DNA of 29,565 nt from an uncultured Chloroflexia bacterium (GCA_963766735.1 CAVYBU010000011.1:1-29565); one strand, 5' to 3'. Numbered from the stretch's first letter, positions 1-28,219 are shown. Program-made: numbers and translations. The notes: a model not told the origin generated them from the sequence alone.

Positions 1-973
1 TGGCGCCATCGGGCTCCCACTTCGGACGTTCGTACAGGCCGGCCTTGTCGGCCAGCACTCGTGCAGGCCCCCCGTCCCAGGGCACCACCTTCAGGAAGGC
101 GCCGCAGGTCACGCAGTCCAGGGATGGCGTCTCGAGGTAGGCGAGCTCGCGGTCCTGGGGATCCCACGCCGGCAGGCCGAGCCGTCCGAACCCGACCCGG
201 ACCAGGGGCCGGTCGACGGCGCCATCCGAGCGGTGCAGCATGATTCGGCCGGAGCCGTCGCCCTCAGCGCCCAACCGGTCAGCCCCTTCATCGACGCTGA
301 CAAACCCTGTCCCGTCGTGCTTGAAGACGAGGTCGTTCGCGATCCACGACCCGAGATCGCGAACGGGCGACCCGTCGGTCGCCACGACTCGCACCTGGAC
401 CGGCCCGTCGGTCGACCCGGGAACCTGGACGGCGATCTCGGACGGGGACAACCACTGGAAGGCACGCACGTCGGGGACCTCACCGACCAGCGTGCCGTCC
501 GGCTCCAGGATCCGGAGGCGTCGCGGCTCGCCTGGAGCAGCGGTGGTCGCGTGGACCGCCGCCACATGCCTGGCGTCCGGCGACCAAGCCGCAGCGGCGT
601 AGACGCCGTCGTCGCGGATCTGCCGTGGGTCGCCGCCGTCGCCGTTGGCGATGACGAGCCCGTCGGTGTACCCGACGGCGAGTCGTGGCCCGTCGGCCGC
701 GGGAGGCTGGATCACGCGGCTGCCGACGAGTGCGAGCGCGCCCAGGAGCGCCGCCAGGAGCAGCGTGAGGAGCACGACCAGGCCGATCCTCGGGTGCGCT
801 CGTGGCGCCGTCCCCGCGCTCCCCTGCTGCAGCACGACGAGGAGCCCAGGCCGCTGTCGAGCCGTCCGGGTCGAGGACATGACGGTCGCGAACAGCGTGT
901 CCGGCTCCCGCCGGGGCGCCGCAGCGTCGAGCATCGAGCGCAGCTGGCGTTCGAGATCGTCGGAGCTGGTCAT
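1..973 (-). CDS. Single-pass membrane protein with PD40/WD40-like beta-propeller, putative anti-sigma factor (module 1); runs off the window edge
   Basis: Missing from the ORF track because there is no stop in the window. ATG at 973-971 overlaps the sigma TGA (ATGA). Translates MTSSDDLERQLRSMLDAAAPRREPDTLF...RQRPG, then TM IGLVVLLTLLLAALLGALALVG, then AAWSPDA, PAWDPQD and PKWEPDG repeats. Frame is open to position 1. Confidence 0.85.
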   Translation of the reverse strand, partial: MTSSDDLERQLRSMLDAAAPRREPDTLFATVMSSTRTARQRPGLLVVLQQGSAGTAPRAHPRIGLVVLLTLLLAALLGALALVGSRVIQPPAADGPRLAVGYTDGLVIANGDGGDPRQIRDDGVYAAAAWSPDARHVAAVHATTAAPGEPRRLRILEPDGTLVGEVPDVRAFQWLSPSEIAVQVPGSTDGPVQVRVVATDGSPVRDLGSWIANDLVFKHDGTGFVSVDEGADRLGAEGDGSGRIMLHRSDGAVDRPLVRVGFGRLGLPAWDPQDRELAYLETPSLDCVTCGAFLKVVPWDGGPARVLADKAGLYERPKWEPDGA

Positions 974-1524
974 GCCGTCCGTCCAGTCTCTGCGCCGGAG
1001 CGTTCGTCAGCGGCGAGCGCCGCCCGCAGCGCGTCCGTTGCGCGGTGGAGCCGGGACTTGGCGGTCCCCAGCGGAATGTCGAGCGCCACGGAGATGTCGG
1101 CCAGGGACAGATCCGCGTAGTAGGCCAGGACAAGGATCGTCCGGTGATCCGTCGGGAGGTGGGCGAACGCCCGCTCCAGCTGGTCGCGGACACCGATCGA
1201 CACGAGGCCGTCGGGCACCGGGGTGTCGTGGTCGAAAGCCAGCGGGATCTCGACGATCTGGCGGCGGCGGTCGCGCCGCGAGGCCCGATAGCAGGATCGG
1301 ACCAGCAGCCGGTGGAGCCAGGCGTCGAGCCGGTCCGGGTCCCGCAGGCCGCGGATGTCCCGCCACGCCTGGATGAGCGCCTCCTGCACGGCGTCCTCGG
1401 CGCGGTCCGGGTCGCGGAGGATCAGCCTGGCCGTGGCGTAGAGCCGCGCGATGACGCCGTGGACGAGCACGCCGAAGGCCTCGTGATCGCCCTCCCGTGC
1501 CCTTCGCACCAGCTCGTGCCGCAT
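970..1524 (-). CDS. ECF (sigma-70 group IV) sigma factor, module 1
   Basis: 184 aa. Region 2 GDHEAF...AEDAVQEALIQAWR...DAWLHRL; region 4 LSLADISVALDIPLGTAKSRLHRA. GAGGGAG RBS upstream. Confidence 0.95.
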   Translation of the reverse strand: MRHELVRRAREGDHEAFGVLVHGVIARLYATARLILRDPDRAEDAVQEALIQAWRDIRGLRDPDRLDAWLHRLLVRSCYRASRRDRRRQIVEIPLAFDHDTPVPDGLVSIGVRDQLERAFAHLPTDHRTILVLAYYADLSLADISVALDIPLGTAKSRLHRATDALRAALAADERSGAETGRTA

Positions 1525-1566
1525 CGGCCGGCTCCCTCAGTCCCTGGCCACGCCAGGGGCCCGCAT

Positions 1567-1575
1567 GGTACGGGG
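1567..1575 (-). promoter_or_regulatory. Candidate -10 element CCCCGTACC upstream of sigma 1
   Basis: Identical 9-mer at 2800-2808. It also overlaps TACCAT (TANNNT). Followed by a 7-bp hairpin at 1542-1558. Confidence 0.4.
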
Positions 1576-1577
1576 TC

Positions 1578-2753
1578 TCACGGTGTCGGTCTGAGCCGGG
1601 GGTGCGTGGCGCTGATGCCATCGATTCGCACGAGCCCCGTGCCGTCGGCATCGACCTGCGCCGCGGTCCGCGTGTCCATCTGCACGAACAGCACCTGCAG
1701 GCCGTCCGGTGTCCAGCTCGGGTGCGACGATCGGACGTCATCCGACCCGTCGTAGACGAGCTCCATGAGCTTCGACCCGTCCGGGCGCATCGTGTACAGG
1801 CGGACCGGGGCGCCCGACGGGTCCACGTCGTGGGTCGTGAACACGATCGCGTCTTTCGTCGGGTTCCAGTCCGGGTACGTGGCGAACAACTGTGGATCCG
1901 TGATCGCCTTGGGCGTCGAGCCCGCCTTGACGGGCAGGATCGCTATCGACGCGCCGGTCTCCGATCCATCATCCTGGAACTGCTCGAGCTGGACGACGAG
2001 CCTGTCGCCATCCGGGGACCATCGGGGCTGGTCCACGAGCTGCAGCCGCTCGGTTCGCGTCACGACGGTGACCTCGCCCGAGGCGACGTCGACGATCTCG
2101 ATCGCCGATGACGATGGCGGTCCACCGGCGACGGGCGGCCCGTGGTAGCGCGTGTGTGCGATCCGCTTCCCGTCCGGCGACCAAGCCGGGAAGTCGCAGT
2201 CACCGTCGCACGTGCCAACCGGTCGGGCGCTCGCACCGTCGACCGCCGCGATCCAGATCGCATCATCGAGTACGAAGGCGATCTGGGCCCCGTCCGGTGA
2301 CCAATCCGGGTGCTTGGCCTCCCCTGGCGCAGGCATGGGCAGCTGGTGGGCCCCGGTGCCATCGGGCCGGACAAGGCAGATGGTGTCCGGCTGACCAGGC
2401 GTGGGTCCGCACGGCGAACCCCACTGGAAGACGATCCACGCCTCACCCGGCAGCACCGTGACCGGCGTCGGGGCGGGCGACGGCGTGGGTGCTTGACTCG
2501 GCATGGGTGCCTCGGTAGGGGCCTGGGTCGCAGCCGTGGTGGGCGCCGGGGTCGACGCAGCGGCGGGTGCCGCGGGCGACGGCTCGGTCGATGCGGGAGC
2601 CTGGGCCGGACTCGAGCAGGCGGTCAGTGCGAGGACACTCGCGGTGGCAAGCACGGCGAGCGCTGGACGCACCTTGGGCACCGCTGCTCCCGCACCGCGT
2701 GCAGACGCACGAGCCGGACGACGGCTCATCGCCTCGACGATCGTTCGAAACAT
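1578..2753 (-). CDS. Lipoprotein with Pro/Ala/Thr-rich linker and PD40 (TolB-like) beta-propeller (lipoprotein B)
   Basis: C-terminal part of the 838-aa track ORF. GGAGGA before GTG-ATG at 2756/2753; a later start (ATG 2729) is possible. Lipobox LTAC, PAT linker, repeated PDWSPDG/PAWSPDG/PRWSPDG/PSWTPDG, ends HPRLRPTP. Confidence 0.85.
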   Translation of the reverse strand: MFRTIVEAMSRRPARASARGAGAAVPKVRPALAVLATASVLALTACSSPAQAPASTEPSPAAPAAASTPAPTTAATQAPTEAPMPSQAPTPSPAPTPVTVLPGEAWIVFQWGSPCGPTPGQPDTICLVRPDGTGAHQLPMPAPGEAKHPDWSPDGAQIAFVLDDAIWIAAVDGASARPVGTCDGDCDFPAWSPDGKRIAHTRYHGPPVAGGPPSSSAIEIVDVASGEVTVVTRTERLQLVDQPRWSPDGDRLVVQLEQFQDDGSETGASIAILPVKAGSTPKAITDPQLFATYPDWNPTKDAIVFTTHDVDPSGAPVRLYTMRPDGSKLMELVYDGSDDVRSSHPSWTPDGLQVLFVQMDTRTAAQVDADGTGLVRIDGISATHPRLRPTP

Positions 2754-2799
2754 CACTCCTCCACCCGACCTGCCGGGCAGCCGGTCGGCTGGCCCATGA

Positions 2800-2808
2800 G
2801 GTACGGGG
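2800..2808 (-). promoter_or_regulatory. Candidate ECF promoter element CCCCGTACC upstream of lipoprotein B
   Basis: Same 9-mer as at 1567-1575. GGAACC lies 17 nt upstream on the minus strand. Confidence 0.4.
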
Positions 2809-2886
2809 CAGGAGGAACGGCGCGAGGTTCCATCTTCGTCGCCGCTGCCCAGACGCGCCGACGCGCGGGGTCGGCTCCGCGGCCCG

Positions 2887-4033
2887 TCAGGGCTCGTCGA
2901 GCACGGCTCGCGCGATCGCTCGAGCGGTGGCGCGATGGTCGGGGGTCTGCTCGCGGTTGGCCAGCAGGACGATCGTGAGGTCGTCGTCGGGGTAGCGGGC
3001 GAGGTACGTGTAGAACCCGTCGATGCCCCCGTCATGGGCGACGATCCGGTGGCCGTCCTCCTCGCCGACGTGCACGCCGTAGCCGTACCCGAACCCGACC
3101 CGGTCGGTGGTCTCCACCAGCGGGGTGGCGACCTGCTCGCGCACGGCGGCCGGGACGAGGGCGTCGGCGTCAAGGGCATCGGCCCACCGCTGCAGGTCGA
3201 AGCACGGTCGAGTAGAGCCCGCCGGCGGCGTACGGGACCGACATGTCGATGGCTGCGGCCGGCGTGAAGGCGGACGTCTAGCCGACCGCGAGCCCGGGCG
3301 TGTCGCCGTCCTCGTAGCCGCTGTCGGCCATGCCCAGCGGTTCGAGGATCTCGTCGCGCAGGAACTGCTCGTAGGGCATGCCGGACGCCCGCTCGATCAC
3401 CATGCCGAGGAGCACTTAGCCCGTGTTGTTGTAGCCGAAGAAGCGGCCCGGCTCCCAGGCGAGCGGGGTGTCCGCGACATCGGCGACGGTCTCCGCCGGG
3501 GTCGACGCGGTCATCGGGTCGGAGTCGGGCTGGTCGGTGAAGCTCGCAATGCCCGAGGTGTGGGCGAGCAGGTGCTCGATCGTGACCGCCTTCCAGGCCT
3601 TCGGGCAGTCGTCGATGTAGTCGCAGATCGAGTCGCTGCGCTTGATCAGCCCGCGGGGCTCGAGGATCAGGATCCCCATGCCCGTGAACTGCTTGGTGAT
3701 CGAGCCGATCCGGAACCGCGTCTCCGGGGTGTTGGCGAGCCTGGCAGCGTCGTCGGCCATGCCGATCCCCTTCGCGTAGAGGACCTCGCCGTCCTTCGCG
3801 ACCAGCGCCGCGCCGTTGAAGTCGGTCCCGAGCAGCCGATCCAGGCGCGTCTCGAGGTCCGGGGTGGCCGTCGGGGTCGGAGCGGGCGCTGAGGTGGGAA
3901 CCGGGGTCGCCGCGGGCGCCGCGGACAGACCCGCCGGGCGTGACGGCGCCTCCGTCGGTGCGCCGGGCTGTGCGCCGCTCGCACACCCGGCAAGGGCGAG
4001 GGCGGCGACGATGCCGAGGACGGAGCTTCTCAT
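2887..4033 (-). pseudogene. Serine hydrolase, beta-lactamase class C / D-Ala-D-Ala carboxypeptidase family lipoprotein; two in-frame stops and one frameshift
   Basis: GGAGG RBS then ATG 4033; lipobox LAGC; SxxK (GSITKQF), YxN (YNN), HDGG. TAA at 3418-3416 and TAG at 3280-3278 are in frame, and there is an extra base at 3200-3201. Homology continues through all three (NTG*VLLG, LAVG*, YSTVL/DLQRW). Confidence 0.85.
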
Positions 4034-4060
4034 GGCGTACCTCCGGGCCATGCACCCGAA

Positions 4061-4091
4061 GGCCGGCGACCCGCCGGGCGGATCGCCGGCC
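4061..4091 (-). terminator. GC-rich hairpin (terminator or mRNA processing/stabilising stem)
   Basis: Minus strand GGCCGGCGATCCGCC-C-GGCGGGTCGCCGGCC pairs fully with one G:U, which occurs only in the minus-strand RNA. It lies 16 nt after the 4107 stop and is followed by only UU. Confidence 0.55.
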
Positions 4092-4106
4092 CAATGGTGC
4101 TCGCGT

Positions 4107-4538
4107 CTAGCGGGTCAGCACGCCCACGTAGTGGTCGATCACCCCGCCGCCGACGTAGTAGCCCACGAGGTTGCCACCGCCGCGGATGCCCTCGTAGGCA
4201 CCGGCGCCCGAGACGACCTTCCAGCCGCCCTGGTCCTGCGGCGAGTCGTTGGCCGTCGCCGCGTTGAGGTGGATCGTCAGCTTGTCCACGCCGTTGGCGC
4301 ACGTGAAGGTCTTGTCGAGGTGGAAGGTGCCGGCCCGGCCGCCCCCGGCGAACCGGAAGTTCGAGTTGGTGGCCGTGCCCTCGGCGCAGAAGCCGCCGGT
4401 TGCGGTGAACGTCTCGGTGCCGCCGAAGCCGTCCACGGTGAGGGTGATCTCGACCGGTGATGCCGCCGAAGCGGCCGGGGCGAGCAGGGCCGCCGCGATG
4501 AGGCCGGCCGCGAGCGGGCGCAGGAGCGGGACGCGCAT
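4107..4538 (-). CDS. Secreted hypothetical protein, possible dirigent/allene oxide cyclase-like beta-barrel
   Basis: 143 aa. GGGAGGA RBS; signal peptide ending ASA; two Cys; beta-rich; WKVVSGAGAYEGIRGGG motif. Confidence 0.75.
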   Translation of the reverse strand: MRVPLLRPLAAGLIAAALLAPAASAASPVEITLTVDGFGGTETFTATGGFCAEGTATNSNFRFAGGGRAGTFHLDKTFTCANGVDKLTIHLNAATANDSPQDQGGWKVVSGAGAYEGIRGGGNLVGYYVGGGVIDHYVGVLTR

Positions 4539-4575
4539 CAGGTTCCTCCCAGTTGTCTGGCGCGGCTGGAGCCGC

Positions 4576-4610
4576 GTTCACTGGGTATGGCGCACGGCAC
4601 ATGCGAATCG
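4576..4610 (-). promoter_or_regulatory. Candidate ECF promoter CGATTC-N12-CGCCATACCC-N3-GAAC
   Basis: Same layout and spacing as 7913-7947. Followed by hairpin CGCGGC-TCCA-GCCGCG. Confidence 0.6.
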
Positions 4611-4634
4611 ATGCGCCGATTCCAGAACCCGCTG

Positions 4635-5987
4635 CTAGTTGCCCAGTCGCGTCCACGGGACGGCCAGCCACGGCTCGCGAGGCGCATCGTCCACCTGCCG
4701 GAACTGCAGGGTGCCGTCGTCCGCCACCTGCCACGTGGCGGTGTTGAGGCCCGACGTGCGCGGCATCCGCCAGTCGAATGGCCACCGGATCACCACGCGC
4801 CCACCCTTCGCCGCGTAGTCGGCCGTGAACGTCTCTGTGATCCCAGCCGGGTCGCCGAGCTCCACCGAGAGGCGCCCGTCCGCGACGGTGATCGTGATCA
4901 CGGTGCCGTCGTCGCTGAACTGGTAGCGTCCGGCAGGGAGCCCGCCGGCCCGGGGGGCGAATGCCGCCCGCCCCGCATCCCATGCCGCGATCTGCACCGC
5001 CAGCGGCTCCGCCAGGCACTCGGCGCCCTTGGCCTCGAACCCCGGTCCACATTCCGGCAGCGGGTGCCCGCTTCGGGCTGCGTCCACGACCGCACGGATG
5101 GCCTCGACGACGAGCTGCGGCCGGTCCTCCATGACCGAGTGGCCCGCGTCGGTTGCCACCATGTGCAGCGCGTTCGATGAGAGTCCGCCGAGCGCATCCT
5201 GGAGTGGCGACCACGCTCGCTCGATGTCGCCGGTCATCCGCCCGTTGGTCAGCACGATGAGCGGCAGGTCGCCGAGGAGTCCTGACTCGAGCAGCTGGTC
5301 GCGGCTCGCGGCCTTGTCCACCTGGTGGCGGCCGTCGACCCACGGCTCGCCCTGGTCCCCCCAGCCGCCTGGCCGAAACTGCTCTTCGTGGCTGGAATCG
5401 ATCAGGATCAGGCCTGCCGTGTCCTCCGGGAAGCGCGCGGCGAAGAGGCGCACGATCATGCCGCCGTACGAGTGGCCGGCGAGCACGTATGGGCCCTCGA
5501 TCCCGGCCGCGACGAGCACGGCGTGCAGCTCGTCCACGCGATCACCGACCGATAGTGCCTCGACACCGGGAAGGGCCTCGCTGCCGCCGACCCCCGGTCG
5601 GTCGTACCAGCAGGTGCGGACAGCAGGGGCCAGACCCTCGGCGATGGGATCGAACACCGACCCGCTGGAGTCGAGGCCGGCCTCGAGGATGACGGTCGGC
5701 CTGGCGGCGCCGGTGCACGACAGTCGGACCGATGCGCCGCTCACCTCCACGCGACGGAGCGGCCCTTCCGCTGCAGCGGTGGGCGGTTGCGACGCCTCGG
5801 CCGATGCCGGAGCGGTGGGCGGTTGCGACGGCCCGGCCGCTGCCGGAGCCGCCGTCCGAGCCGAAGGCTCAGCTGGGACTGCTGGCGACAGCGCCGAGCA
5901 GCCTCCGGCCATGGTTGCGGCGACGGCTGCGACCAGGAGGCTCGTCAGCACACGCCACCTGGCTGGCCGGGTCATGAAGCCCTTCAC
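4635..5987 (-). CDS. Alpha/beta hydrolase lipoprotein with extra C-terminal domain
   Basis: GTG 5987 overlaps the upstream TGA (GTGA); ATG 5975 is an alternative start. AGGC lipobox-like, Pro/Ala linker, YDRPGVGGS, GHSYGG nucleophile elbow, DAGHSV histidine. Confidence 0.85.
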   Translation of the reverse strand: MKGFMTRPARWRVLTSLLVAAVAATMAGGCSALSPAVPAEPSARTAAPAAAGPSQPPTAPASAEASQPPTAAAEGPLRRVEVSGASVRLSCTGAARPTVILEAGLDSSGSVFDPIAEGLAPAVRTCWYDRPGVGGSEALPGVEALSVGDRVDELHAVLVAAGIEGPYVLAGHSYGGMIVRLFAARFPEDTAGLILIDSSHEEQFRPGGWGDQGEPWVDGRHQVDKAASRDQLLESGLLGDLPLIVLTNGRMTGDIERAWSPLQDALGGLSSNALHMVATDAGHSVMEDRPQLVVEAIRAVVDAARSGHPLPECGPGFEAKGAECLAEPLAVQIAAWDAGRAAFAPRAGGLPAGRYQFSDDGTVITITVADGRLSVELGDPAGITETFTADYAAKGGRVVIRWPFDWRMPRTSGLNTATWQVADDGTLQFRQVDDAPREPWLAVPWTRLGN

Positions 5988-7309
5988 GGCGCCAGTCGCT
6001 GCCATTCCGGCAGGTTGTCTCCCAGCTGCACCTCGGACCCCTCGCCGGAGGCGGTGTCCACGAGGTACGTCCGCGCGAGGTCGTTGAAGTAGAGGAGCGC
6101 CGCCGATCCGTCCGGCGACCACACCTTGACGGTCCCCGTGCCGGCGCTCCCGTCGCTCCGTGGCGACATGTCTCGGCCTTGCCCCGAGCCGTCGGCGGGG
6201 ACGACGGCCACCCACGACGACGCGTCCTGCGCGCCCTCGGAAGGAAGCACGAACCGCTCGACCATGAGCTGGGTGCCGTCGGGCGACCAGGTGGGCCACC
6301 CCTGGTGGATGCGCGGGTCCGCGGGCGCCGGCAAGGGCCGGTCGTTCGTCCCGTCGGCATCGATGAGGTGGACACGGAAGGACGTCATCAGGGTCACGGG
6401 ATCGAGATCCATGGCGTTGTAGGCGATGGTCGATCCGTCCGGGGACCACTGGGCACCTGAGAGCGTGTACTCCAGTCCATACGCCGAGATGCCGATGAGG
6501 TCGAAGCGGGGGCCGACCGAGCCGTCCAGGTGCGCGAGGTAGAGCCCCTGCGAGCGACTGCTGGTTGTCAACGCCCGCAGGAGGAACAGATCCGGGTCCG
6601 CCGGACTGGGCAGGGCGTCATACGGGACGAGACCGTCGGGAAGGACGATCTCCTGCGCGCCGCTGCCGTCGGCCGGCACCTTGAACAGCCGTCGGGTCCC
6701 GTTCTCGAACTGGCCCGTCACGAGCACGTAGGAGCTGTCGTAGGCCCACCATGCCTGCGCCCACCCATCCTGGATCGGCAGCCCGAGGACCTCGCGAGAG
6801 GCTGATCCGTCGCTGTCGGCCATCATGAGGTGGTCACCGTCCGACGCGGTGCGCACGAACATCATCGTCGAGCCGTCCGGCGACAGGTAGGGGCCGCTCT
6901 CCCGGTCAGGCCCGTCGATGATCGCCGCGACGTCGCCACCGACGGATGACGCCCGGTAGATCCCCCCGTCGCGCTCGAACACGAGGGCGCCGTTGCGGGC
7001 CGGACCCACCGGGAGCGGGAGCCTGGGCCGGGAGCCGGCGACGAAGATCGAGGTCGCAGCGAGGGCGAGGAGCGCCGCAAGCGCCAGCAGCAGGATCGGG
7101 CGCAGCGGCGCCTGTCCGGCCCACGCCGGCGCCAGGGTCACGCCCGCGGGAAGCCACGTTCCCGGGAAGCTCCAGCGCGGCCGCTGCGAGGTGCGCGCGG
7201 TCTGCCGGAGGATGCCCTCGAGGTAGTCGGGCCGGCGCGGCGCGGCGATCTCGCCGATCGCGGCCGTGATGCGCTGCTCGAACGGGTCGAACCGGTCGAC
7301 GGTCGTCAT
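5984..7309 (-). CDS. Single-pass membrane PD40 beta-propeller protein, putative anti-sigma factor (module 2)
   Basis: 441 aa. ATGA overlap with sigma 2. N-terminus FEQRITAAIGEIAAPRRPDYL...TARTSQRPRW; TM ILLLALAALLALAATSIFVAG; LSPDG/WSPDG repeats; ends LPEWQRLAP. Confidence 0.88.
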   Translation of the reverse strand: MTTVDRFDPFEQRITAAIGEIAAPRRPDYLEGILRQTARTSQRPRWSFPGTWLPAGVTLAPAWAGQAPLRPILLLALAALLALAATSIFVAGSRPRLPLPVGPARNGALVFERDGGIYRASSVGGDVAAIIDGPDRESGPYLSPDGSTMMFVRTASDGDHLMMADSDGSASREVLGLPIQDGWAQAWWAYDSSYVLVTGQFENGTRRLFKVPADGSGAQEIVLPDGLVPYDALPSPADPDLFLLRALTTSSRSQGLYLAHLDGSVGPRFDLIGISAYGLEYTLSGAQWSPDGSTIAYNAMDLDPVTLMTSFRVHLIDADGTNDRPLPAPADPRIHQGWPTWSPDGTQLMVERFVLPSEGAQDASSWVAVVPADGSGQGRDMSPRSDGSAGTGTVKVWSPDGSAALLYFNDLARTYLVDTASGEGSEVQLGDNLPEWQRLAP

Positions 7310-7869
7310 GCCGTCCTCCCTCCCTGCGGGCTGGGGACGGGGGGCACGTCCGTGGTCAACGTCCGGCGCAGACCCTGCATCGCCCGGTGCAGCCGAGACT
7401 TCGCAGCCGGGAGGGAGATCCCGAGCGAGGCCGCCGCCTCGGGCAGCGGGTAGCCGAGGTAGTAGTGGAGGACGACGAGCGCCCGGTGCTCCGGGTCGAG
7501 CCGGGCCAGTGCCCGCTCGACGAGGTCGCGGTCCGCGAGGCTGCGTGCGGCGTCGCCGCCCGCAACCGGCTCGTCGATGGGCAGGATCTCGACCTCGATG
7601 GGACGGCGCCGGCGCCGGCGGGCCTCGTCGAGGCAGCTGTTGACGAGGAGACGGTGCAGCCAGGCGTCGAACCTCTCCGGGTCACGAAGTCCAGGGAGGT
7701 CACGCCAGGCGCGTACCAGGGCGTTCTGGACCGCGTCGCGCGCGAGCTCGCGGTCCCGCAGGATGAGGCGTGCGGCCGCGTCGAGGCGCGTGGCGGACGC
7801 CGTGGCGAGCACGGCGAAGGCGTCGTGATCGCCCCGCCCCGCCCGCTCGACGAGCTCCCTCCGTTCCAC
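7306..7869 (-). CDS. ECF sigma factor, module 2 (close paralog of sigma 1)
   Basis: GTG 7869 chosen by alignment to sigma 1 (187 aa). GDHDAF...ARLILRD...DAVQNALVRAWRD...DAWLHRLLV; region 4 AAKSRLHRA. Confidence 0.93.
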   Translation of the reverse strand: MERRELVERAGRGDHDAFAVLATASATRLDAAARLILRDRELARDAVQNALVRAWRDLPGLRDPERFDAWLHRLLVNSCLDEARRRRRRPIEVEILPIDEPVAGGDAARSLADRDLVERALARLDPEHRALVVLHYYLGYPLPEAAASLGISLPAAKSRLHRAMQGLRRTLTTDVPPVPSPQGGRTA

Positions 7870-7912
7870 GGTCCCTGGTCCCTCACCCTGGCCCCGGCGC
7901 ACGATGTGCCGG

Positions 7913-7947
7913 GTTCGAAGGGTATGGCGTCGGCGCAACCGGATTCG
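7913..7947 (-). promoter_or_regulatory. Candidate autoregulatory ECF promoter CGAATC-N12-CGCCATACCC-N3-GAAC
   Basis: Shared with 4576-4610; directly upstream of sigma 2. Confidence 0.6.
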
Positions 7948-7978
7948 TTTCGCCGTTCGCCTCGCCTGGAGTCCGCGA

Positions 7979-9070
7979 TCAGGGCGTCGGGCGGAACCTC
8001 GGGTGGACGCCCGCGATGTATCCGCTGCTCGTGGCCGGCTGCGCGTCGCTGCCGTCGAGGGCGACGGTCGCCATGACCCACGGGTCATCGGAGCCGACCT
8101 TCGCCGTGACGAACGCGATCCGCGTGCCGTCGGGCATGAACGTCGGCTGGACGGCGAAGGCGTGCTCGTCCGCGTAGTGCGTGAGCTGTGTCAGGCCGGT
8201 CCCGTCGGGGTTGATCGTCCACAGGTCCGCCTCGGCGTCAAACTTCTCGGGGTCGACGGGCCGGAAGAACACGATCAGCGAACCGTCCGGGCTCCAGTCA
8301 GGGTTGGCGGGCCAGTAGGAGTCGCCGGTGATCACCGTCGGCTTGGGCTTGGCGGCGCCCACGTCGATGATCGCGAGGCTGCCGCTGTCGAAGTCCTCGA
8401 GACTGGTCGCGCCGTCGCGCCGGTGGAGGTACTCCGCGACGATCTTCGTACCGTCGGGCGACCACCGGGGCGCGAAGAGCGCGCGGTTCCTGGTGGTTGT
8501 GAGGACGACCCTCGTCGTCTTGCTCGCGACGTCGTAGATCTCGAGCGTTGAGACCCAGTCGTCCTCGAGCGAGTGACGGTGGAACGCGATCGACGTACCG
8601 TCCGGCGACCACGCGGGCTCGTCCGCGATCGAGCACGTGTCGCAGATGACGATGTGCTCGGGGTTGCCGCCGTCGGCGTCCGTCACCCACAGGTCGCGCG
8701 CAGCAGCGCCCTTCGTGCTGAAGACGAGACGCTGGCCGTCCGGCGACCAGTCCGGGTGGAGTTGCTCCGTGCCCTCGGCCGCATCGGTGGGAAAGAACAG
8801 GTCGGTCCCGTCCGGACGCACGAGCCTGACGCCATAGAGACCGTCGCCGCTGTCCCCCTGGAAGGCGATCCACGCCTCGCCGGGGAGGACCGCCGGCTTC
8901 GGCGTCGCAGTCGGAGACGCGGCGACCGTGGGGCCGGGCGTCGCAGCAGCCGACACAGCCGGAGAGGCTGAGGGCGCTGTGGAGGGCTCCTGGGTGGCGG
9001 TCGGCGCCCCGGTGGCGGCACAGCCGGCGAGGACCAGGACGGCCACGATGGCCAGGACGGGACGCTTCAC
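7979..9070 (-). CDS. Lipoprotein with PAT linker and PD40 beta-propeller (lipoprotein A)
   Basis: GTG 9070 overlaps the upstream TGA, with a GGAGG RBS. MKRPVLAIVAVLVLAGC lipobox; VLPGEAWIAFQ; four WSPDG motifs; ends HPRFRPTP (363 aa). Confidence 0.9.
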   Translation of the reverse strand: MKRPVLAIVAVLVLAGCAATGAPTATQEPSTAPSASPAVSAAATPGPTVAASPTATPKPAVLPGEAWIAFQGDSGDGLYGVRLVRPDGTDLFFPTDAAEGTEQLHPDWSPDGQRLVFSTKGAAARDLWVTDADGGNPEHIVICDTCSIADEPAWSPDGTSIAFHRHSLEDDWVSTLEIYDVASKTTRVVLTTTRNRALFAPRWSPDGTKIVAEYLHRRDGATSLEDFDSGSLAIIDVGAAKPKPTVITGDSYWPANPDWSPDGSLIVFFRPVDPEKFDAEADLWTINPDGTGLTQLTHYADEHAFAVQPTFMPDGTRIAFVTAKVGSDDPWVMATVALDGSDAQPATSSGYIAGVHPRFRPTP

Positions 9071-10479
9071 GGTTGAACCTCCGGGAGCCATTCGAGACAG
9101 GGAGCGCCCAGCCCGCGGAGCGGGAAGTCGGCGGCTTGCGGCACGGACGCGATCGACCTCGACTGGGCGTCGCCCCAGACGTCGGTTGCCCAGAGCCTTG
9201 CGGCGTCGCCGGTCCGGCTCTTGACCGGGCCGGCGGTATCCACCGTGAGCAGCATCGTGCCGTCGGGCGACCAGGCCATCTCCGACCTCTCGCCAGTCGT
9301 CCCGGGCAGCTCGACGACGCGGGGTTCCGACCCGTCGAGCGGGTAGATCGTGACGGCCTGCCGCGCCGGCCACCCTCGCCACTCGGTGACAACTGCCAGG
9401 CTCGTGCCGTCGGGCGACCACCTGACGGCCGGTATGGCCGGGCCAACGAGGAACGGTAGGACCTGGTGGGCGCCCTCGTCGAGGTCGATCACCTCCAGCT
9501 CGCCGGTGTCCGTCATTGCGACGATGGATCCACCGTCGGGTGACCAGGCGCCGGCAGGGACGTACAAGCTCGACCGTGACGCGAGATCCGGATGGCCCGC
9601 GTTGCGGACGCTCCCATCCGACGGGGTGACGAGGGTCAGGCCCCGATCACCCGGCAGGGTGGAGACGGCGAAGCGCGACCCGTCGGGCGACCAGGAGATC
9701 GACGGATACGCCTCCGGGTCATCAACTGGCAGCCCCGCGATGACCCTGTCGGTGCCGCCGCCCAGCAGGTGGATCTGGAGGGCGTCCGGTCCATCGGGCA
9801 CGGCCAGGGCGAGGACATCGCCGGAAGGCGACAGCGCGCCACCGGAGGCGCCGACGATCGGATACCAGTCGATGTGGGGGTTGGCGACGTCGCCATCGCG
9901 GAAGGTGACCACCGAGGCGCCCGCCGCCTGATCGACGAACGCCCTCGACCCACGGTCGCCCGACCAGACCTCGAAGCCCCCGTAGTTCGTGAGCTGCCGG
10001 TGTTGGCCTTGACCGCTGAACGAGGGGAACAAGTGCGCGTCGAACGAGCGGAACGTATCCGCACCGAAACCGCCCAGCCTCACCGCGTCGACGTTGCCCA
10101 GCAGTTGCGGGCATCCCCGGGCTTGCATCGTGGCCGACGCCCGGATGGTGCCGTCGGCACCGAACAGGTGCGTCCTGTCGTCATCCGTCAGCTGGACCAG
10201 GATCCGGCCGCCTCCGCCCAGCGGCGCCGGCTCGGGAGCCAGGAACCCACCGGCGAACAGCAGGCCGGCCACGCTCGCGAGCGCCAGCAGGCCGAGCACG
10301 ATCGCGAGACGCAGACCACCGAGCCGCGGCGCGAGGTGCGGCAGCGCGAAGCCCCGGCCGCGCTGGCCCGCGGCGATCTCGGCGGCGAGCACCCGGGCGT
10401 TCACGTGGCGCGGAGCGGCGTCGGTGTACCGGTCGAAGGCGTCGGCCAGGCGGGTTTCGAAGGTCGTCGGTTCAGGCAT
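9067..10479 (-). CDS. Single-pass membrane PD40 beta-propeller protein, putative anti-sigma factor (module 3)
   Basis: ATG 10479 overlaps the sigma 3 stop by 8 nt. MPEPTTFETRLADAFDRYTDAAPR...; TM LAIVLGLLALASVAGLLFAGGF; four WSPDG motifs (470 aa). Confidence 0.85.
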   Translation of the reverse strand: MPEPTTFETRLADAFDRYTDAAPRHVNARVLAAEIAAGQRGRGFALPHLAPRLGGLRLAIVLGLLALASVAGLLFAGGFLAPEPAPLGGGGRILVQLTDDDRTHLFGADGTIRASATMQARGCPQLLGNVDAVRLGGFGADTFRSFDAHLFPSFSGQGQHRQLTNYGGFEVWSGDRGSRAFVDQAAGASVVTFRDGDVANPHIDWYPIVGASGGALSPSGDVLALAVPDGPDALQIHLLGGGTDRVIAGLPVDDPEAYPSISWSPDGSRFAVSTLPGDRGLTLVTPSDGSVRNAGHPDLASRSSLYVPAGAWSPDGGSIVAMTDTGELEVIDLDEGAHQVLPFLVGPAIPAVRWSPDGTSLAVVTEWRGWPARQAVTIYPLDGSEPRVVELPGTTGERSEMAWSPDGTMLLTVDTAGPVKSRTGDAARLWATDVWGDAQSRSIASVPQAADFPLRGLGAPCLEWLPEVQP

Positions 10480-11017
10480 GGTCGAGCTCCGTCCGGAGAC
10501 GCTCGATGAGCCGGGCGAGGCGGCTGCGCACGCCCGACGGGGAGAGGTGGAGTTGCACGGCGATCTCGGTGGAGTCGAGACCGGCGACGAACCGGAGCGC
10601 GAGGAGCGCGCGGTCGTCGGGCTTGAGCTTGGCAAGGACACGGGCGAGATCCACGGCGCCGATCCGGTCCGCGGGGTCTGCCCCCGGCGCGGCGTCCAGT
10701 GATTCGCTGATGTCCACGACGACCCGGCGGCCGCGCTTGCGCACGACCTGGCGAGCCTCGTTCGCGGCGATCGCCACGAGCCAGGATCGGACCTGGGACT
10801 GGTCGCGGAGCGTGGAGAGCCGGCGCCAGGCGATGGCCCACGCGCTCTGCGTGGCGTCCCGTGCGGACTCGACATCACCGCACACCGCGTAGGCGACCTT
10901 CGCCATTGATCCGTGGTGTCGCTCCACCAGGCGCGCGAACGCCACCTCGTCGCCGCTCGCCGCGAGGCGGACGGTGGCGTCGGTCGCCGGGATGTCCCCG
11001 ATCGTGATGTCGGTCAT
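10472..11017 (-). CDS. ECF sigma factor, module 3
   Basis: 181 aa from ATG 11017. GDEVAFARLV...ARDATQSAWAIAWRRL...SWLVAIAANEAR; region 4 EIAVQLHLSPSGVRSRLARL. Confidence 0.93.
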   Translation of the reverse strand: MTDITIGDIPATDATVRLAASGDEVAFARLVERHHGSMAKVAYAVCGDVESARDATQSAWAIAWRRLSTLRDQSQVRSWLVAIAANEARQVVRKRGRRVVVDISESLDAAPGADPADRIGAVDLARVLAKLKPDDRALLALRFVAGLDSTEIAVQLHLSPSGVRSRLARLIERLRTELDHA

Positions 11018-11023
11018 GCGAGG

Positions 11024-11051
11024 TAGATGCGCCACGGTGCGCAAGTGTCCC
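11024..11051 (-). promoter_or_regulatory. Candidate leaderless ECF-type promoter GGGACA-N16-CATCTA
   Basis: Resembles the general ECF GGAAC-N16-CGTC layout; the -10 ends 6 nt before ATG 11017; no SD sequence. Confidence 0.45.
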
Positions 11052-11068
11052 AGCCGACGCAAGAGGGG

Positions 11069-11083
11069 TCCGCGAGTCGCGGA
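11069..11083 (-). terminator. Short inverted repeat between EamA and sigma 3
   Basis: TCCGCGA-G-TCGCGGA; followed on the minus strand by CCCCTCTT. Confidence 0.3.
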
Positions 11084-11139
11084 GCCTCACACGGGCTGGG
11101 TGCCGTTCGAGGAGTTCGCGCGCTGGGATCGCTGGTAGA

Positions 11140-12081
11140 TCAGGCCCCCGGCAGCCGCGCCCGCACGCTTGTCGGCAGGACGCTGCCCCGCCTCGTCAGC
11201 CACAGCCCCAGGATGATCACCGCGCCGCCCACGACCTGGGCCGGCCGGACCGGCTCGGCGAGGAAGATCGCACCCAGGATGACGGCGCCCGCCGGGACCA
11301 GGAGCTGGCTCGCCGAGGTCCGCGTGGGTCCGATGTGGCGAATGGCGTTGAACACGAGCACGTTCGCCGTCCCCACGGCCAGTGCGCCCGAGAAGAGCAC
11401 CGCCACGACCACCGGCAGCGTCACCACGACGGCCGGCGAGGTGGCCGCCTCCCAGATCCCGAGCGGGACCAGCAGCAGCGTCCCACCCAGGACGGTCCAG
11501 GCCGTCGCCTGCAGGGGATCAACGCGCCGGAGCAATCTCGTTCCGAGCACCGTGTAGACCGCCCAGAACACGGCCGCCGCTAGCGTGAGCACGTCGCCTG
11601 CCAGCGAGGCCCCCAGCGTCAGCTCGTGACCGCCGGCGATGACGAGCGCCACCCCGACGAACGCCGTCAGCGCGCCCGCCAGCTTCGGGGGCGTCAGGCG
11701 GTCCATCCCCAGGGCTCCGGCCAGCAGCGCGACCAGCACCGGGGATGCCGCCACGATCAGCGCCGAGTCGCCAGCGGTGATCTGTGTCAGCCCGAGAGTC
11801 CACGCCACCTGGTAGCAGCCGAACCCCAGCATGCCCAGGCCGATCAGCTGCAGGGTGAGCCCGGTGGGCCGGCGGATCGCCCCCGTGCGCCAGCGGACCA
11901 GCAGGAACAGGGTGAGGGTGGCGATGACGAACCGGGCAGACGTGAAGGTGAGCGGGCCCAGCTCGGCGATTGCCGCCTTGACCACGACGAAGTTGGCCGA
12001 CCAGATCAGGACCGTGAGGAGCATGCCGGCTTCGGCCAGGCGGCGATCACGGGGCGACCCGGCGGCGACTGGCGGAGGCAC
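11140..12081 (-). CDS. DMT/EamA family transporter
   Basis: About 10 hydrophobic segments; IWSANFVVVK, GPLTFTSARF, GAIFLAEP. Start uncertain: the frame is open up to an ATC at 12204. Confidence 0.9.
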   Translation of the reverse strand: MPPPVAAGSPRDRRLAEAGMLLTVLIWSANFVVVKAAIAELGPLTFTSARFVIATLTLFLLVRWRTGAIRRPTGLTLQLIGLGMLGFGCYQVAWTLGLTQITAGDSALIVAASPVLVALLAGALGMDRLTPPKLAGALTAFVGVALVIAGGHELTLGASLAGDVLTLAAAVFWAVYTVLGTRLLRRVDPLQATAWTVLGGTLLLVPLGIWEAATSPAVVVTLPVVVAVLFSGALAVGTANVLVFNAIRHIGPTRTSASQLLVPAGAVILGAIFLAEPVRPAQVVGGAVIILGLWLTRRGSVLPTSVRARLPGA

Positions 12082-12203
12082 AGAGACGCCCGCGGGAGAC
12101 GCGAGGCCTGACGGGGACGCGGAGACGCCCGCCGGGATGGCGGGCGTCGAACGCGAATTCGAGGGATCGACGGGCCGGGGGCCCGCCGGGGTGGACGACG
12201 CGA

Positions 12204-12359
12204 TCAGGCGCCTTCCTGCTCGAGCTCCAGGGCCTCCTCGTCGTCCTCCTCGGTCAGCTTCAGCCAGACGAAGAGTCCGGCCAGCACGACCATGGGGATG
12301 ATGATCAGTGCGCCCAGGGTGACCCCGAGCGCGACGGCAACGGTCCGCAGCGCCTTCAT
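12204..12359 (-). CDS. Small single-pass membrane protein with acidic tail (51 aa)
   Basis: Below the ORF-track cutoff. AAGGAGG RBS; MKALRTVAVALGVTLGALIIIPMVVLAGLFVWLKLTEEDDEEALELEQEGA; mostly G/C in third codon positions. Confidence 0.8.
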   Translation of the reverse strand: MKALRTVAVALGVTLGALIIIPMVVLAGLFVWLKLTEEDDEEALELEQEGA

Positions 12360-12420
12360 GGGCTTGGGCCTCCTTGCTACGACATATCGCTATTGATTGT
12401 GCCCGGTGTCGGGCGCCCTG

Positions 12421-12939
12421 TCACGAGGCGGGGGCGCCGGGGTCGGCCTTGCCTCCCCGATGCATCGGGCCCTGGGCCACCAGCGACGAGACGTCGTCAC
12501 GGGTGAACTCGGCCAGCTGATGGTGGGCGCCCGACTGGCCGGCCATGAGGAGCCGGACCACGTAGGCACCCTCCTGCTCGAACAGGAACACGTCCTTCGG
12601 CTTCTGCTCGTCGATCCAGCGTCCGATCACGCGCAGGGCGCCTTCGTGACCCACGTTCGTCGGGGCCGGTTGCTCTACGTCACCGCGACGCGTCGCGGCC
12701 TCCTCCATGAACTTGGCGATGTCGTCATCGACGAAGGTCAGGGTCTCCTTGGTCTGCGTCCCGATCGCCTCGGACCACGCCGAGGTCGACCCACCGGCCA
12801 TGACCAGCCCCTGGACGACGAACCCGTCCGGCACCTCGAGCAGCAGGATGTCCCGCATGCCGCGTTCATCGAGAAAGGCGCCGATCGACCGGAAGACCTC
12901 CTCGAAATCCTGCCGCGGGCTCCCCTCGTAGATCCGCAT
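12421..12939 (-). CDS. Hypothetical cytoplasmic protein with internal two-fold repeat
   Basis: 172 aa; GAGGAG RBS; globular-protein composition; two similar ~65-aa halves. Confidence 0.85.
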   Translation of the reverse strand: MRIYEGSPRQDFEEVFRSIGAFLDERGMRDILLLEVPDGFVVQGLVMAGGSTSAWSEAIGTQTKETLTFVDDDIAKFMEEAATRRGDVEQPAPTNVGHEGALRVIGRWIDEQKPKDVFLFEQEGAYVVRLLMAGQSGAHHQLAEFTRDDVSSLVAQGPMHRGGKADPGAPAS

Positions 12940-12984
12940 TGCTGCTCCTCGCTGCGCCGCCCGCCCCCGGGCGTTGACCGGGTG

Positions 12985-14196: not shown

Positions 14197-16238
14197 ATGG
14201 CTGACCGAACGCGCCGGACACCCCGGCTCCCCACCCCCGAGACGCTCCGCCGGCAGGTGGTCCTCGAAGAGCACGACCTGTCACCCGATGGGTCCTTCGC
14301 CGTGGTTTCACGGCGCGTTGTGGAGGGGGAGCACTACACGTCCAGCCTGTGGCTCGTGCCGATCCAGGCAGAGGCACGCGGCCGAGCCCCCACTCCCAGC
14401 CGCCTGACCCGGGGGCCCGTCCGCGACACGCGGCCCCTGATCTCGCCCGACGGCCAGCGCGTTGCGTTCCTGCGCGAGACGCCCGCCGACGATGACGCTC
14501 CCGCCTCGCTCCGGATCCTCGACCTTCGCGGCGGCGAGCCCCTGACCTTGCCCACCGGGGACCTGTCGGTGCGCGAGCTACGCGTGGTCGCCGGATGGCC
14601 TGCTGGATCGCGTTCACGGCCAGGACGGACCCGCAGCGGTTCATCGTCGGTCCCGTGCCCAAGACTGGCGAGCCTCGCGCGCGCCGCGTGACCACGATGG
14701 ACTGGCGCTACGACGAGACCGGTTACGTCGATCGGGTGCGGCAGGTGCACGTCATCCAGGCGGCGGAGACTGGACAGCCGCGCTGCCTCACCAGCGTCGC
14801 CGGCGGCGTTGCCGACCTCGCCTGGCGCCCCGACGGCAAGGCCATCGCCTTCACCGCAGACCCACGAGACGACGCAGATCGCCACCCCCGGACCTCGATC
14901 TGGGAGGTGCCGCTCGGGGGCGGCGACATCCGCGAGATCATGGCGCTTGCCGGCCCGGTCAAGTCGGCGGCGTACTCTCCGGACGGCCGCTGGGTCGCGG
15001 GGATCGGGGTGGACGACCCGGACTTCTTCGACGACCTCTCCCCCACCCTGTACCTGGGTCCGGCCGATGGTTCCGCGCCAGCCGTGGCCCTGGCACCCGC
15101 TCTGGACAGGCCGGTCGGGAACTGGGCCGACACGGACCTGACCGGCTGGATGACCGATGGCCGACCCGGGCCCACCTGGGACGGGACGGACGCGGTGGTC
15201 GCGCTCGTCACGGATCGCGGACGGACGCACCCATGGCGCTTCCCACTGGATCCCGAGATTGGCCGGCCTGCCGGTCAGCCCGCGCCCATGGTGCAGGGCG
15301 ATGTCATGGCCAACACGATGGCGCTGGGCGGCGGGCGCTTGACGGTGACGGCCACGGTGGGCGCCCGGCCACCGGAGCTGCTCCTGGTCACGAAGGCCGG
15401 CTCGCTGCGCCCGCTGACGACGATGGGCTCCTCGTGGATCAACGGCCTCGCCTGGCCAGAGATGCGCCGCGTGGACGCCCCGGGACCCGGTGGCACGATC
15501 GAGACGTGGATCGCCTCCCCGGCCGGCGCCGGCGACGAGCCGCTGCCCACCGTCGTGGACGTCCACGGCGGGCCGCTCGGAGCGTGGGCCCCGGCCCCGT
15601 CCCTGGAGGTGGTCCTGCTCTGCGCCCGCGGCTACCGCGTCGTCCTGCCGAACATCCGGGGCTCTGCGTCCTACGGTGCCGCGTGGATCAAGCCGCAGCT
15701 GGGCGAGTGGGGAGGACCGGACGCGGAAGACGTCCACGCGGCGCTCGACCACGCCATCGACATCGGCCTGGCGAACCCCGACCGCCTGGGTGTGCTGGGC
15801 CTCTCGTATGGCGGCTTCATGGTCAACTGGCTCGTGGGGACCACGGACCGGTTCCGGGCAGCCGTGTCCGAGAACGGCGTGAGCAACCAGGTCTCGGCGT
15901 GGGCCCAGAGCGACAGCGGCCCCGAGTACTGCCGCGCTGCCCGCATGGGCGATGCGACCACGCCCGAGGGCGTCGAGCAGCTGTGGCAACAGTCGCCGCT
16001 GCGGAACGTCGCCAGCGTCCGGACCCCGCTGCTGATGCTCCAGTCGGAGGCCGACCGGCGTTGTCCGACGTCCGACAACGAGCAGCTCTTCATCGCGCTC
16101 CGGTGGCTGGGCCGGGAGGTCGAGTACATCCTGTACCCGGAGGAGTTCCACGTCATCCAGGCGATCGGTCGCATCGACCGGCGGATCGACCGGATGACCC
16201 GGATGCTCGACTGGTTCGACCGCTTCCTGAAGACGTAG
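14197..16238 (+). pseudogene. S9 family (acylaminoacyl/prolyl oligopeptidase-like) peptidase, frameshifted as given (possibly a sequence error)
   Basis: N-terminal propeller (LSPDG, ISPDG) in ORF 14197; catalytic domain (VHGGP, GLSYGG, EADRRCP, EEFH) in ORF 14595. Removing single bases near 14580 and 14601 restores ELAWSPDGRWIAF and a ~679-aa protein. Confidence 0.85.
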
Positions 16239-24097: not shown

Positions 24098-24903
24098 TCG
24101 CCCCGCGCCCCCGTCGCCTGCCCATCGTCCGCGTCCTGCCGACGCCCGACGCTGCGGCCGAGGCCGCGGCGACAGCGATCGTCGTCGCCCTGGAGGCCGC
24201 GATCGCGGAACGGGGCGTTGCCCACTGGGCCACCACGGGTGGCTCGGCGGCCCCGGGGATCTACCGGCACCTGCGCGTCCCGCCCCTCCGGGATCTCGTG
24301 GACTGGTCGAGCGTCCACGTCTGGTGGGGCGACGACCGGTTCGTCCCGGCCGGCGACCCACTGTCGAACGTGCTGCCGCTCAACGAGATGCTGCTGGCCG
24401 CCGAAGGGGACGACGGCGACCACGGCGGGATCCGGATCCCGGTCTCGAACGTGCACCCGGTACCGGTCGCCGAGGCCATCGTCAACGGTGACGGCCCCGT
24501 CGGTGCGGCGGCGGCCTACGAGACGTCGCTCCTCCTTGAAGGCCCCGGACGGGATCAGGAGGGCGTTCCGGCCTTCGACGTCCTGGTGCTGGGCGTCGGC
24601 CCCGACGGCCACGTGCTCTCGGTCTTCCCCGGGTCCGCGGTCTGGGAGGAGGGATCGCTCGTGCGGGCGGTGCCGGCCCCGACCCACGTGGAACCGCACG
24701 TGGAGCGCGTGACGATGCACCCGGACGTCGTCGCTGCCGCGAGATCCGTCCTCGTGGTGTCCACCGGGGCGTCCAAGGCGGCCGTGCTCGGCGCGGCCTG
24801 GGGCGGCGACGACGCCCGCGATCTGCCGGTGCGCATGACGATGGCCACCAACGCAACGTGGATCCTGGACGAGGCCGCGGCGTCCGAGCTGCCGCGCGAG
24901 TAG
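24094..24903 (+). CDS. pgl: 6-phosphogluconolactonase
   Basis: GTGA overlap; TGGS, WWGDDRFVP, LGVGPDGHVLSVFPG, ERVTM. Confidence 0.95.
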   Translation: MIAPRPRRLPIVRVLPTPDAAAEAAATAIVVALEAAIAERGVAHWATTGGSAAPGIYRHLRVPPLRDLVDWSSVHVWWGDDRFVPAGDPLSNVLPLNEMLLAAEGDDGDHGGIRIPVSNVHPVPVAEAIVNGDGPVGAAAAYETSLLLEGPGRDQEGVPAFDVLVLGVGPDGHVLSVFPGSAVWEEGSLVRAVPAPTHVEPHVERVTMHPDVVAAARSVLVVSTGASKAAVLGAAWGGDDARDLPVRMTMATNATWILDEAAASELPRE

Positions 24904-24914
24904 GGCTGCCAGCC

Positions 24915-28045: not shown

Positions 28046-28219
28046 GCGCAGTGCGCCGATTGAGGGAACAGGCTTCCTGCGCGCACGCACCAGGCGGAGG
28101 TCGCCACCGCCGGCCCCTCGAGGCGAGCGGAGGCTTGGGCCCGAACAGGCGCCTTGACGGAACCGGGTCCCGCGACGCCGCGTTGCACGATCCTGGAAGG
28201 ACCCGCATCCTTGCGCGCG

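Follow-up and report, generated by a model that had tools for sequence, protein, structure and literature searches.

ECF sigma factors paired with membrane-anchored propeller proteins in a Chloroflexota contig, and the exported proteins that they probably control

What is the function of a locus at which three sigma factor genes are each followed by a gene for a membrane protein, with genes for lipoproteins and other exported proteins between them, and are those lipoproteins partners of a switch or its products? We analyzed such a locus in an uncultured Chloroflexia bacterium (GCA_963766735.1), a metagenome-assembled genome (MAG) of 3.6 Mb in 35 contigs (completeness 93.9%, contamination 4.2%). 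The window is the whole of contig CAVYBU010000011.1 (positions 1-29565; 29,565 nt; here C11), and the array occupies its first 11 kb. The locus probably consists of three paralogous extracytoplasmic function (ECF) sigma/anti-sigma modules of Limnocylindrales-type Chloroflexota plus the exported proteins switched on by them. The core pair of sigma factor and membrane propeller is a known kind of system. What appears to be new is its Chloroflexota form, the two conserved promoter motifs, the tandem arrays in this lineage, the lipoprotein and hydrolase outputs, the fast-evolving sensors and the fixed breakpoints of exchange.

Genes were called from third-position GC, the frame plot, open reading frame (ORF) translations and Pfam. 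The G+C content of the window is 72%, hence many false frames among the ORFs. Frame analysis of third-position GC, ORF reading and Pfam gave eleven minus-strand genes across 2-11017 (Table 1). A preliminary description of this DNA had proposed three ECF sigma genes, each with an overlapping membrane-protein gene, all on one strand, and this gene order is borne out. Two of its details need correction: the beta-lactamase-like gene is broken, and TMprop1 is cut by the contig end. The part of TMprop1 that is present matches no Pfam family, including PD40, and shows only weak similarity to PD40 proteins. The overlap of each sigma stop codon with the start of the next gene, also claimed earlier, was seen at all three sigma/membrane-protein junctions, as the 8-nt ATGCCTGA for sig3/TMprop3 and as ATGA for both sig2/TMprop2 and sig1/TMprop1. 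Two further coupled junctions had been missed, namely TMprop3/lipoA and TMprop2/hydrolase (GTGA in each case). The repeated genes are paralogues: sig1 and sig2 are 52% identical, sig3 is ∼35% identical to both, and lipoA and lipoB are 36% identical. The ectodomains of the three membrane proteins resemble each other at the repeat level only. A fourth module at 11140-12984 was ruled out by Pfam, which identified an EamA transporter (11140-12081) plus an ORF without a family.

All three sigma proteins contain Sigma70_r2 and r4_2 domains in Pfam and belong to the ECF group (group IV). They pass the NCBIfam model TIGR02937 (sigma70-ECF) with its cut-off of 42.9 bits (scores in Table 1). The nearest NCBIfam model, TIGR02983 (SigE-fam_strep), gave 110, 108 and 83 bits, below its cut-off of 141.6, and a PDB sequence search with sig2 returned generic ECF matches only. 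The AlphaFold2 model of TMprop3, built from a 13-row alignment, has a mean predicted local distance difference test score (pLDDT) of 74.6, with helices at residues 7-18 and 28-40, a transmembrane helix at 55-79 and an all-beta region at 92-465; the cytoplasmic part of ∼46 residues was modelled at low confidence. TolB was the best Foldseek match of this model (E 2e-11), at modest TM-scores. The N-termini of the three window proteins and of three proteins encoded on contig C3 of the same genome align as one segment of ∼46 residues. A hidden Markov model of this segment gave eight matches over the genome, 8/8 directly after a sigma gene (three on C11, three on C3 and two on contig C8). The earlier proposal of ECF sigma/membrane anti-sigma-type pairs with an extracytoplasmic propeller is supported by the domains, the gene overlaps and the helix-helix-transmembrane-propeller topology. 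M50 proteases, Lgt and LspA are also encoded in the genome.

The same description knew of no characterized system with this architecture, but one was characterized in 2012. In Thermoanaerobacter tengcongensis, the 'TolB' gene after rpoE1 encodes an anti-sigma factor that binds the sigma factor via residues 1-39, and Tt-RpoE1 reads its own promoter, tGTTAC-N16-CGTC (Liu et al., 2012; PMC3397946). At the level of architecture, the sigma/membrane-protein pairs of the window are of the Tt-TolB type, with an overlapping downstream gene, a short cytoplasmic N-terminus, one transmembrane helix and a TolB-like outer domain. Tt-RpoE1/Tt-TolB differs in being a single module of a Firmicute with another promoter, and the available part of that paper describes neither a propeller lipoprotein nor a hydrolase cargo for it (PMC3397946). 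Propeller anti-sigma factors have also been catalogued for ECF39 and ECF266 (Casas-Pastor et al., 2021; PMC7826278). ECF39 members are all from Actinobacteria and have the target promoter CAACC (-35) and CGTC (-10); in the subgroups without two-component systems, the +1 gene encodes a putative anti-sigma factor with one transmembrane helix that may carry WD40-like beta-propeller repeats (PMC7826278). ECF266, from Clostridiales (Firmicutes), has a +1 protein with Pfam Beta_propel and one transmembrane helix, termed 'AS factors of a new type' (PMC7826278). None of the terms propeller, WD40, TolB, PD40, Kelch or lipoprotein occurs in the main text of the article, and the descriptions of ECF39 and ECF266, as far as they are available, include no +2 lipoprotein (PMC7826278).

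The window modules share with both groups a +1 gene for a one-helix putative anti-sigma factor with a propeller, but do not fit the description of either. The loci with the closest relatives of lipoA come from 'Candidatus Limnocylindrales' and 'uncultured Chloroflexia' MAGs (65-72% identity) and not from Actinobacteria, and the promoters found here (GAATC-N12-CGCCATACCC and GGGACAC...CATCT) are not that of ECF39. ECF266 differs in its host, and the +1 proteins here have one transmembrane helix but PD40 in place of Beta_propel. A literature search on ECF sigma factors combined with anti-sigma and PD40 found no paper describing this system, and for sigma factors of Limnocylindria only sigma-factor counts were found. 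To our knowledge, ECF propeller-sensor systems have been catalogued but only one has been studied, with no ligand known for any of them.

Two promoter motifs were recognized at the locus. The sigma2-type motif, GAWTC-N12-CGCCATACCC, has two matches in the window vs. 0.01 expected, the pattern having been derived from those two sites. Its 10-mer occurs eight times in the genome, three times before sig2 copies, once before the secreted-protein gene and four times elsewhere. Among related loci from other genomes (L numbers, surveyed below), the motif precedes the sig2 orthologues in L008, L025 and L028 and a degenerate remnant in L003; it is also present upstream of a secreted-protein gene in L019 and, in L024, of a lipoprotein gene that has a Shine-Dalgarno site. 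The sigma3-type motif is GGGACAC-T-N12-15-CATCT. In this genome it was found before sigma3-type genes only (in the window and on contigs C8 and C7, with a looser version on C3). The strict pattern has nine matches in the loci of other genomes, seven before sigma genes, two directly before lipoprotein genes (L004 and L017) and none elsewhere. A loose regular expression for the promoters was dropped, with 75 matches that were mostly due to chance. The -10 element of sig3 ends ∼7 nt before the ATG, and a Shine-Dalgarno site is lacking, as would be expected if the mRNA were leaderless; six other genomes show this spacing too. Judged by its sequence, the sig3 promoter is probably leaderless and autoregulated. 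In L004 (5808-5860) and L017 (5783-5835), the sigma3-type promoter is followed by a stretch resembling the first sigma codons, with the ATG lost, and this stretch looks like the remnant of a deleted sigma/anti-sigma pair. Control of exported hydrolases by the system, as had been suggested, is plausible because the sigma2-type motif precedes both the sig2-TMprop2-hydrolase unit and the secreted-protein gene; the part of that suggestion in which a lipoprotein docks on the anti-sigma propeller fared less well.

The role of the lipoproteins can be judged from contig C8. Window positions 9021-29565 are 92-97.5% identical to C8:226001-204220, a stretch that holds housekeeping genes (transketolase, pentose-phosphate genes, citrate synthase and CorA), and the two versions diverge inside the ECF/propeller region. 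The likeliest origin of C11 is a second strain, whose copy of the C8 locus was binned together with this MAG. Sequencing run X2 holds both arrangements: its record 12 joins the C8-like hydrolase gene to 9021-9417, and its record 15 bridges 9021 in the C11 order. The C8 copies of sig3 and TMprop3 are 100% and 98.9% identical to those of the window, and an intact PF00144 hydrolase lipoprotein occupies lipoA's place behind the same TMprop3. LipoA and the C8 lipoprotein have the same signal peptide at 16/17 residues (window 9020-9070; L002, C8 225952-226010), and the DNA divergence begins right after the lipobox Cys codon, which together point to a lipoprotein 'cargo slot' behind TMprop3. In L003, L004 and L005, the lipoA orthologues are 79, 72 and 70% identical and sig3 is 87, 63 and 74% identical, respectively. 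The ectodomains encoded there are ≤30% identical to that of TMprop3, and L004 has another family instead. Lipoprotein genes were found behind their own sigma3- or sigma2-type promoters in L004, L017 and L024. The C8 swap and the sigma-type promoters before lipoprotein genes make the lipoproteins and hydrolases look like regulated outputs. On present sequence comparisons, the lipoproteins look more like products of the switch than partners in it.

The other possibility is a three-part sensor, in which a lipid-anchored PD40 propeller binds a ligand or docks on the anti-sigma propeller and so modulates sigma release. E. coli sigma-E/RseA/RseB provides a model, in which the operon of the sigma factor also contains the genes for its membrane anti-sigma and for a third, extracytoplasmic protein; this protein, RseB, is soluble and periplasmic and binds RseA. 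The window modules likewise encode an extracytoplasmic third protein with sigma and anti-sigma. RseB has another fold; the protein in its position here is a TolB propeller with a lipid anchor, and a hydrolase can take its place. A second possible model is CseA of the Streptomyces coelicolor sigE-cseA-cseB-cseC operon, where SigE has no anti-sigma factor and depends on a two-component system (PMC6767563). Compared by description, this is also an ECF sigma operon with an extracytoplasmic lipoprotein, and loss of CseA changes signalling, raising sigE promoter activity, according to the part of the paper available (PMC6767563). RslA/RslAA, named earlier as an anti-sigma/partner pair, could not be found.

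We examined the neighborhoods of lipoprotein homologues in 79 related loci, with phylum labels taken from the record titles; 45 were counted (full-length homologue and ≥3 kb upstream) and 34 were left out (partial, short flank or no hit). A same-strand ECF sigma gene lies ≤3 kb upstream in 12/28 Chloroflexota-labelled loci, 2/15 Actinomycetota-labelled loci and 0/2 others. One of the two Actinomycetota-labelled cases, Rathayibacter L030, has an opposite-strand ORF between the sigma and the lipoB-like gene and was not counted as the same architecture. Outside Chloroflexota the lipoprotein family is mostly without a sigma factor. Tandem repeats of the module are common in this lineage.

The three-part sensor gains from the translational coupling of lipoA to TMprop3 and from the recurrence of the sigma, membrane protein, lipoprotein order in these 12 relatives and on contig C3. 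Like-with-like pairing is also conceivable, as in L004, L007, L009, L046 and L017 the membrane-protein ectodomain is itself of the lipoprotein family. Against it stand the hydrolase lipoprotein behind an unchanged TMprop3 in C8, the lipoA orthologues next to dissimilar ectodomains, the lipoprotein genes alone behind sigma-type promoters, and the paucity of sigma genes near the Actinomycetota-labelled homologues. We concluded that lipoprotein docking is unsupported and that a sensing role for the lipoproteins is doubtful; regulated surface outputs explain these arrangements better.

Exchange was also seen in the sigma2 module. The promoter, sig2 and the first 49 codons of TMprop2 (7162-7950) are 98% identical in DNA to C8 (227222-227960) and 92% to C3 (320381-321181). 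Past the breakpoint at codon 49 the ectodomains are unrelated: that of the window is PD40-type, and those of C8 and C3 are Kelch-like. On C8, both sig2 and the membrane-protein gene (TMprop2') contain frameshifts, which may be due either to genuine decay or to indel errors. Between species, identity is 83-91% for sig2, 56-86% for the partner N-terminus and 36-37% for the ectodomain. The sensor domains appear to be fast-evolving, and sensors and cargo appear to have been exchanged at fixed breakpoints. A more far-reaching and rather unlikely idea is that a constant cassette (promoter, sigma and cytoplasmic segment) is recombined with varied propeller sensors and lipoprotein cargos, at the end of the cytoplasmic segment and at the lipobox cysteine, to give each strain its own, rapidly evolving repertoire of surface sensors and responses. 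If true, the exchanged repertoire is perhaps aimed at phages, competitors or variable polymers.

Several points weigh against the sigma/anti-sigma interpretation and its regulated outputs. With a cut-off as lax as E 10, Pfam gave no anti-sigma domain (class I: zf-HC2/RsrA-like or RskA) within the N-terminal 90-100 residues of any of the three membrane proteins; the anti-sigma role is argued from position, coupling, topology and the Tt-TolB precedent. A promoter was sought for sig1 and lipoB and none could be assigned. Both motifs are derived partly from sites at which they were then counted, and targets that have diverged can escape a strict pattern, which leaves room for larger regulons. Membership of a sigma operon is compatible with a signalling role for a lipoprotein; rseB lies in the sigma-E operon. 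Finally, two strains may have been binned together, so the counts per genome are uncertain.

The first of these points, together with the shortness and low-confidence model of the cytoplasmic part, would fit an alternative in which the sigma factors are controlled otherwise and share a transcript with membrane propeller proteins that are envelope proteins and not anti-sigma factors. We consider this very improbable: the N-terminus is conserved along with the sigma type but the ectodomain is not, the N-terminal segment occurs directly after sigma genes only, and the equally short N-terminus of Tt-TolB binds its sigma factor (PMC3397946). That the three-module order is an assembly chimera from mixed strains is barely credible, for although the similarity to C8, the contamination level and the three near-identical sig2 copies could be read that way, contigs of other runs are nearly identical over many parts of 1-11100, the 9021 junction is bridged in C11 order by records in runs X1 (8345-9090) and X2 (8381-9070), and the same module order recurs in other genomes. 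The runs holding window DNA are sediment or aquatic metagenomes, with shares of ≤0.44.

In the sigma/anti-sigma interpretation, each sigma factor would be co-translated with a single-pass membrane protein whose two-helix cytoplasmic N-terminus of ∼46 residues holds it, by analogy with Tt-TolB residues 1-39. The outer TolB-like beta-propeller would act as the sensor, and its ligand may be a peptide or an envelope fragment. The signal would free the sigma factor via proteolysis or a conformational change, and the freed sigma would read the type-specific promoter before its own operon. The sigma3 operon would also yield lipoA and the sigma2 operon the alpha/beta-hydrolase lipoprotein; the second copy of the sigma2-type promoter would drive the gene for the small secreted protein and, before it was broken, that for the PF00144 lipoprotein. 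The PD40 lipoproteins would be TolB-propeller-only kin of the sensor domains and mainly regulated surface outputs, and strains would exchange sensors and cargo at the fixed breakpoints. With many sensor swaps made by nature on unchanged sigma cassettes, two clear promoter motifs and small regulons encoded in cis, the lineage makes specificity, signal and output directly testable in a heterologous host. The large 'TolB-like' lipoprotein family would gain its first functional context, as a sigma-controlled surface protein.

Table 1. Genes and promoter motifs of the sigma/propeller array in the window.
Feature	Position	Strand	Evidence or remark
Sigma3-type promoter motif	11025..11051	-	Ends ∼7 nt before sig3 ATG; motif kept in related loci
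sig3, ECF sigma factor, 181 aa	10472..11017	-	Pfam Sigma70_r2 + r4_2; NCBIfam sigma70-ECF 75.2 bits
TMprop3, putative anti-sigma, 470 aa	9067..10479	-	sig3 overlap; AlphaFold2 model; Foldseek; N-terminal hidden Markov model match
lipoA, TolB-type beta-propeller-only lipoprotein, 363 aa	7979..9070	-	Lipobox LAGC; GTGA overlap with TMprop3; AlphaFold2 model
Sigma2-type promoter motif GAATC-N12-CGCCATACCC	7920..7946	-	∼50 nt before sig2 GTG
sig2, ECF sigma factor, 187 aa	7306..7869	-	Pfam; NCBIfam sigma70-ECF 72.9 bits
TMprop2, putative anti-sigma, PD40 ectodomain, 441 aa	5984..7309	-	ATGA overlap; PD40 3e-14; N-terminal hidden Markov model match
Alpha/beta-hydrolase lipoprotein, ∼450 aa	4635..5987	-	Abhydrolase_1 1.7e-12; GTGA overlap with TMprop2 stop
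Second sigma2-type promoter motif GATTC-N12-CGCCATACCC	4583..4609	-	∼45 nt before secreted-protein ATG
Small secreted protein, 143 aa, signal peptide	4107..4538	-	ORF reading
Broken PF00144 beta-lactamase-family lipoprotein gene	2887..4051	-	Pfam matches in two frames
lipoB, TolB-propeller lipoprotein, 367 aa, lipoA paralogue	1578..2681	-	Lipobox LTAC; ends 53 nt before sig1
sig1, ECF sigma factor, 184 aa	970..1524	-	Pfam; NCBIfam sigma70-ECF 69.5 bits
TMprop1, putative anti-sigma, >324 aa, cut by contig end	2..973	-	ATGA overlap; N-terminal hidden Markov model match

The exported proteins were characterized further. Lipobox sequences LAGC, LTAC, LAGC and AGGC follow the signal peptides, and these proteins are classed as lipoproteins, with Lgt and LspA available in the genome. 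The AlphaFold2 model of lipoA (pLDDT 87.2) matches TolB (2w8b_A) with E 1e-16, TMq 0.64, a root-mean-square deviation of 3.1 Å and 20% identity. The predicted fold is that of the C-terminal beta-propeller of TolB of the Tol-Pal system alone; lipoA differs from TolB in lacking the N-terminal alpha/beta domain and in being lipid-anchored. The TolB model TIGR02800 was not passed, with scores of ≤95 bits (lipoA 95) vs. a cut-off of 343. The lipoA/lipoB family has a conserved C-terminal HPR-x-RP motif and comprises at least 1161 clusters at E ≤ 1e-20 among 8000 candidates scored, which are named 'Tol biopolymer transport system component', 'TolB protein' or hypothetical. Of the loci fetched, those of Microbacteriaceae (Rathayibacter and others) encode the best relatives of lipoB, at 52-59% identity vs. 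≤44% for the Chloroflexota loci, and its history may include transfer between phyla.

Relative to the intact C8 paralogue, the PF00144 gene of the window is interrupted by two in-frame stop codons (3416-3418 and 3278-3280) and shifts frame near 3200, and does not encode an intact hydrolase despite keeping the SxxK motif. A contig of run X5 covers 3207-3632 with no difference, so that both stop codons are seen outside this assembly as well, though run and source sample may not be independent. The small secreted protein has no match in Pfam or NCBIfam. Its Atlas matches are to uncharacterized, unnamed clusters only, with an AOC-like barrel as a mere lead at 0.85. The C-terminal third of the hydrolase (4635-5100), ∼150 residues past the alpha/beta-hydrolase domain, matches no family. 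A hydrolase lipoprotein of 28% identity follows a sigma/propeller/lipoprotein unit in L007.

Elsewhere in the window, three long ORFs have no Pfam family at 1e-5, at 12421-12939 (-), 24555-25724 (-) and 28051-29565 (+); the second is doubtful as a gene because it overlaps plus-strand genes. A gene for an S9 (prolyl oligopeptidase family) peptidase, an enzyme class that uses PD40-type propellers, lies at 14595-16235.

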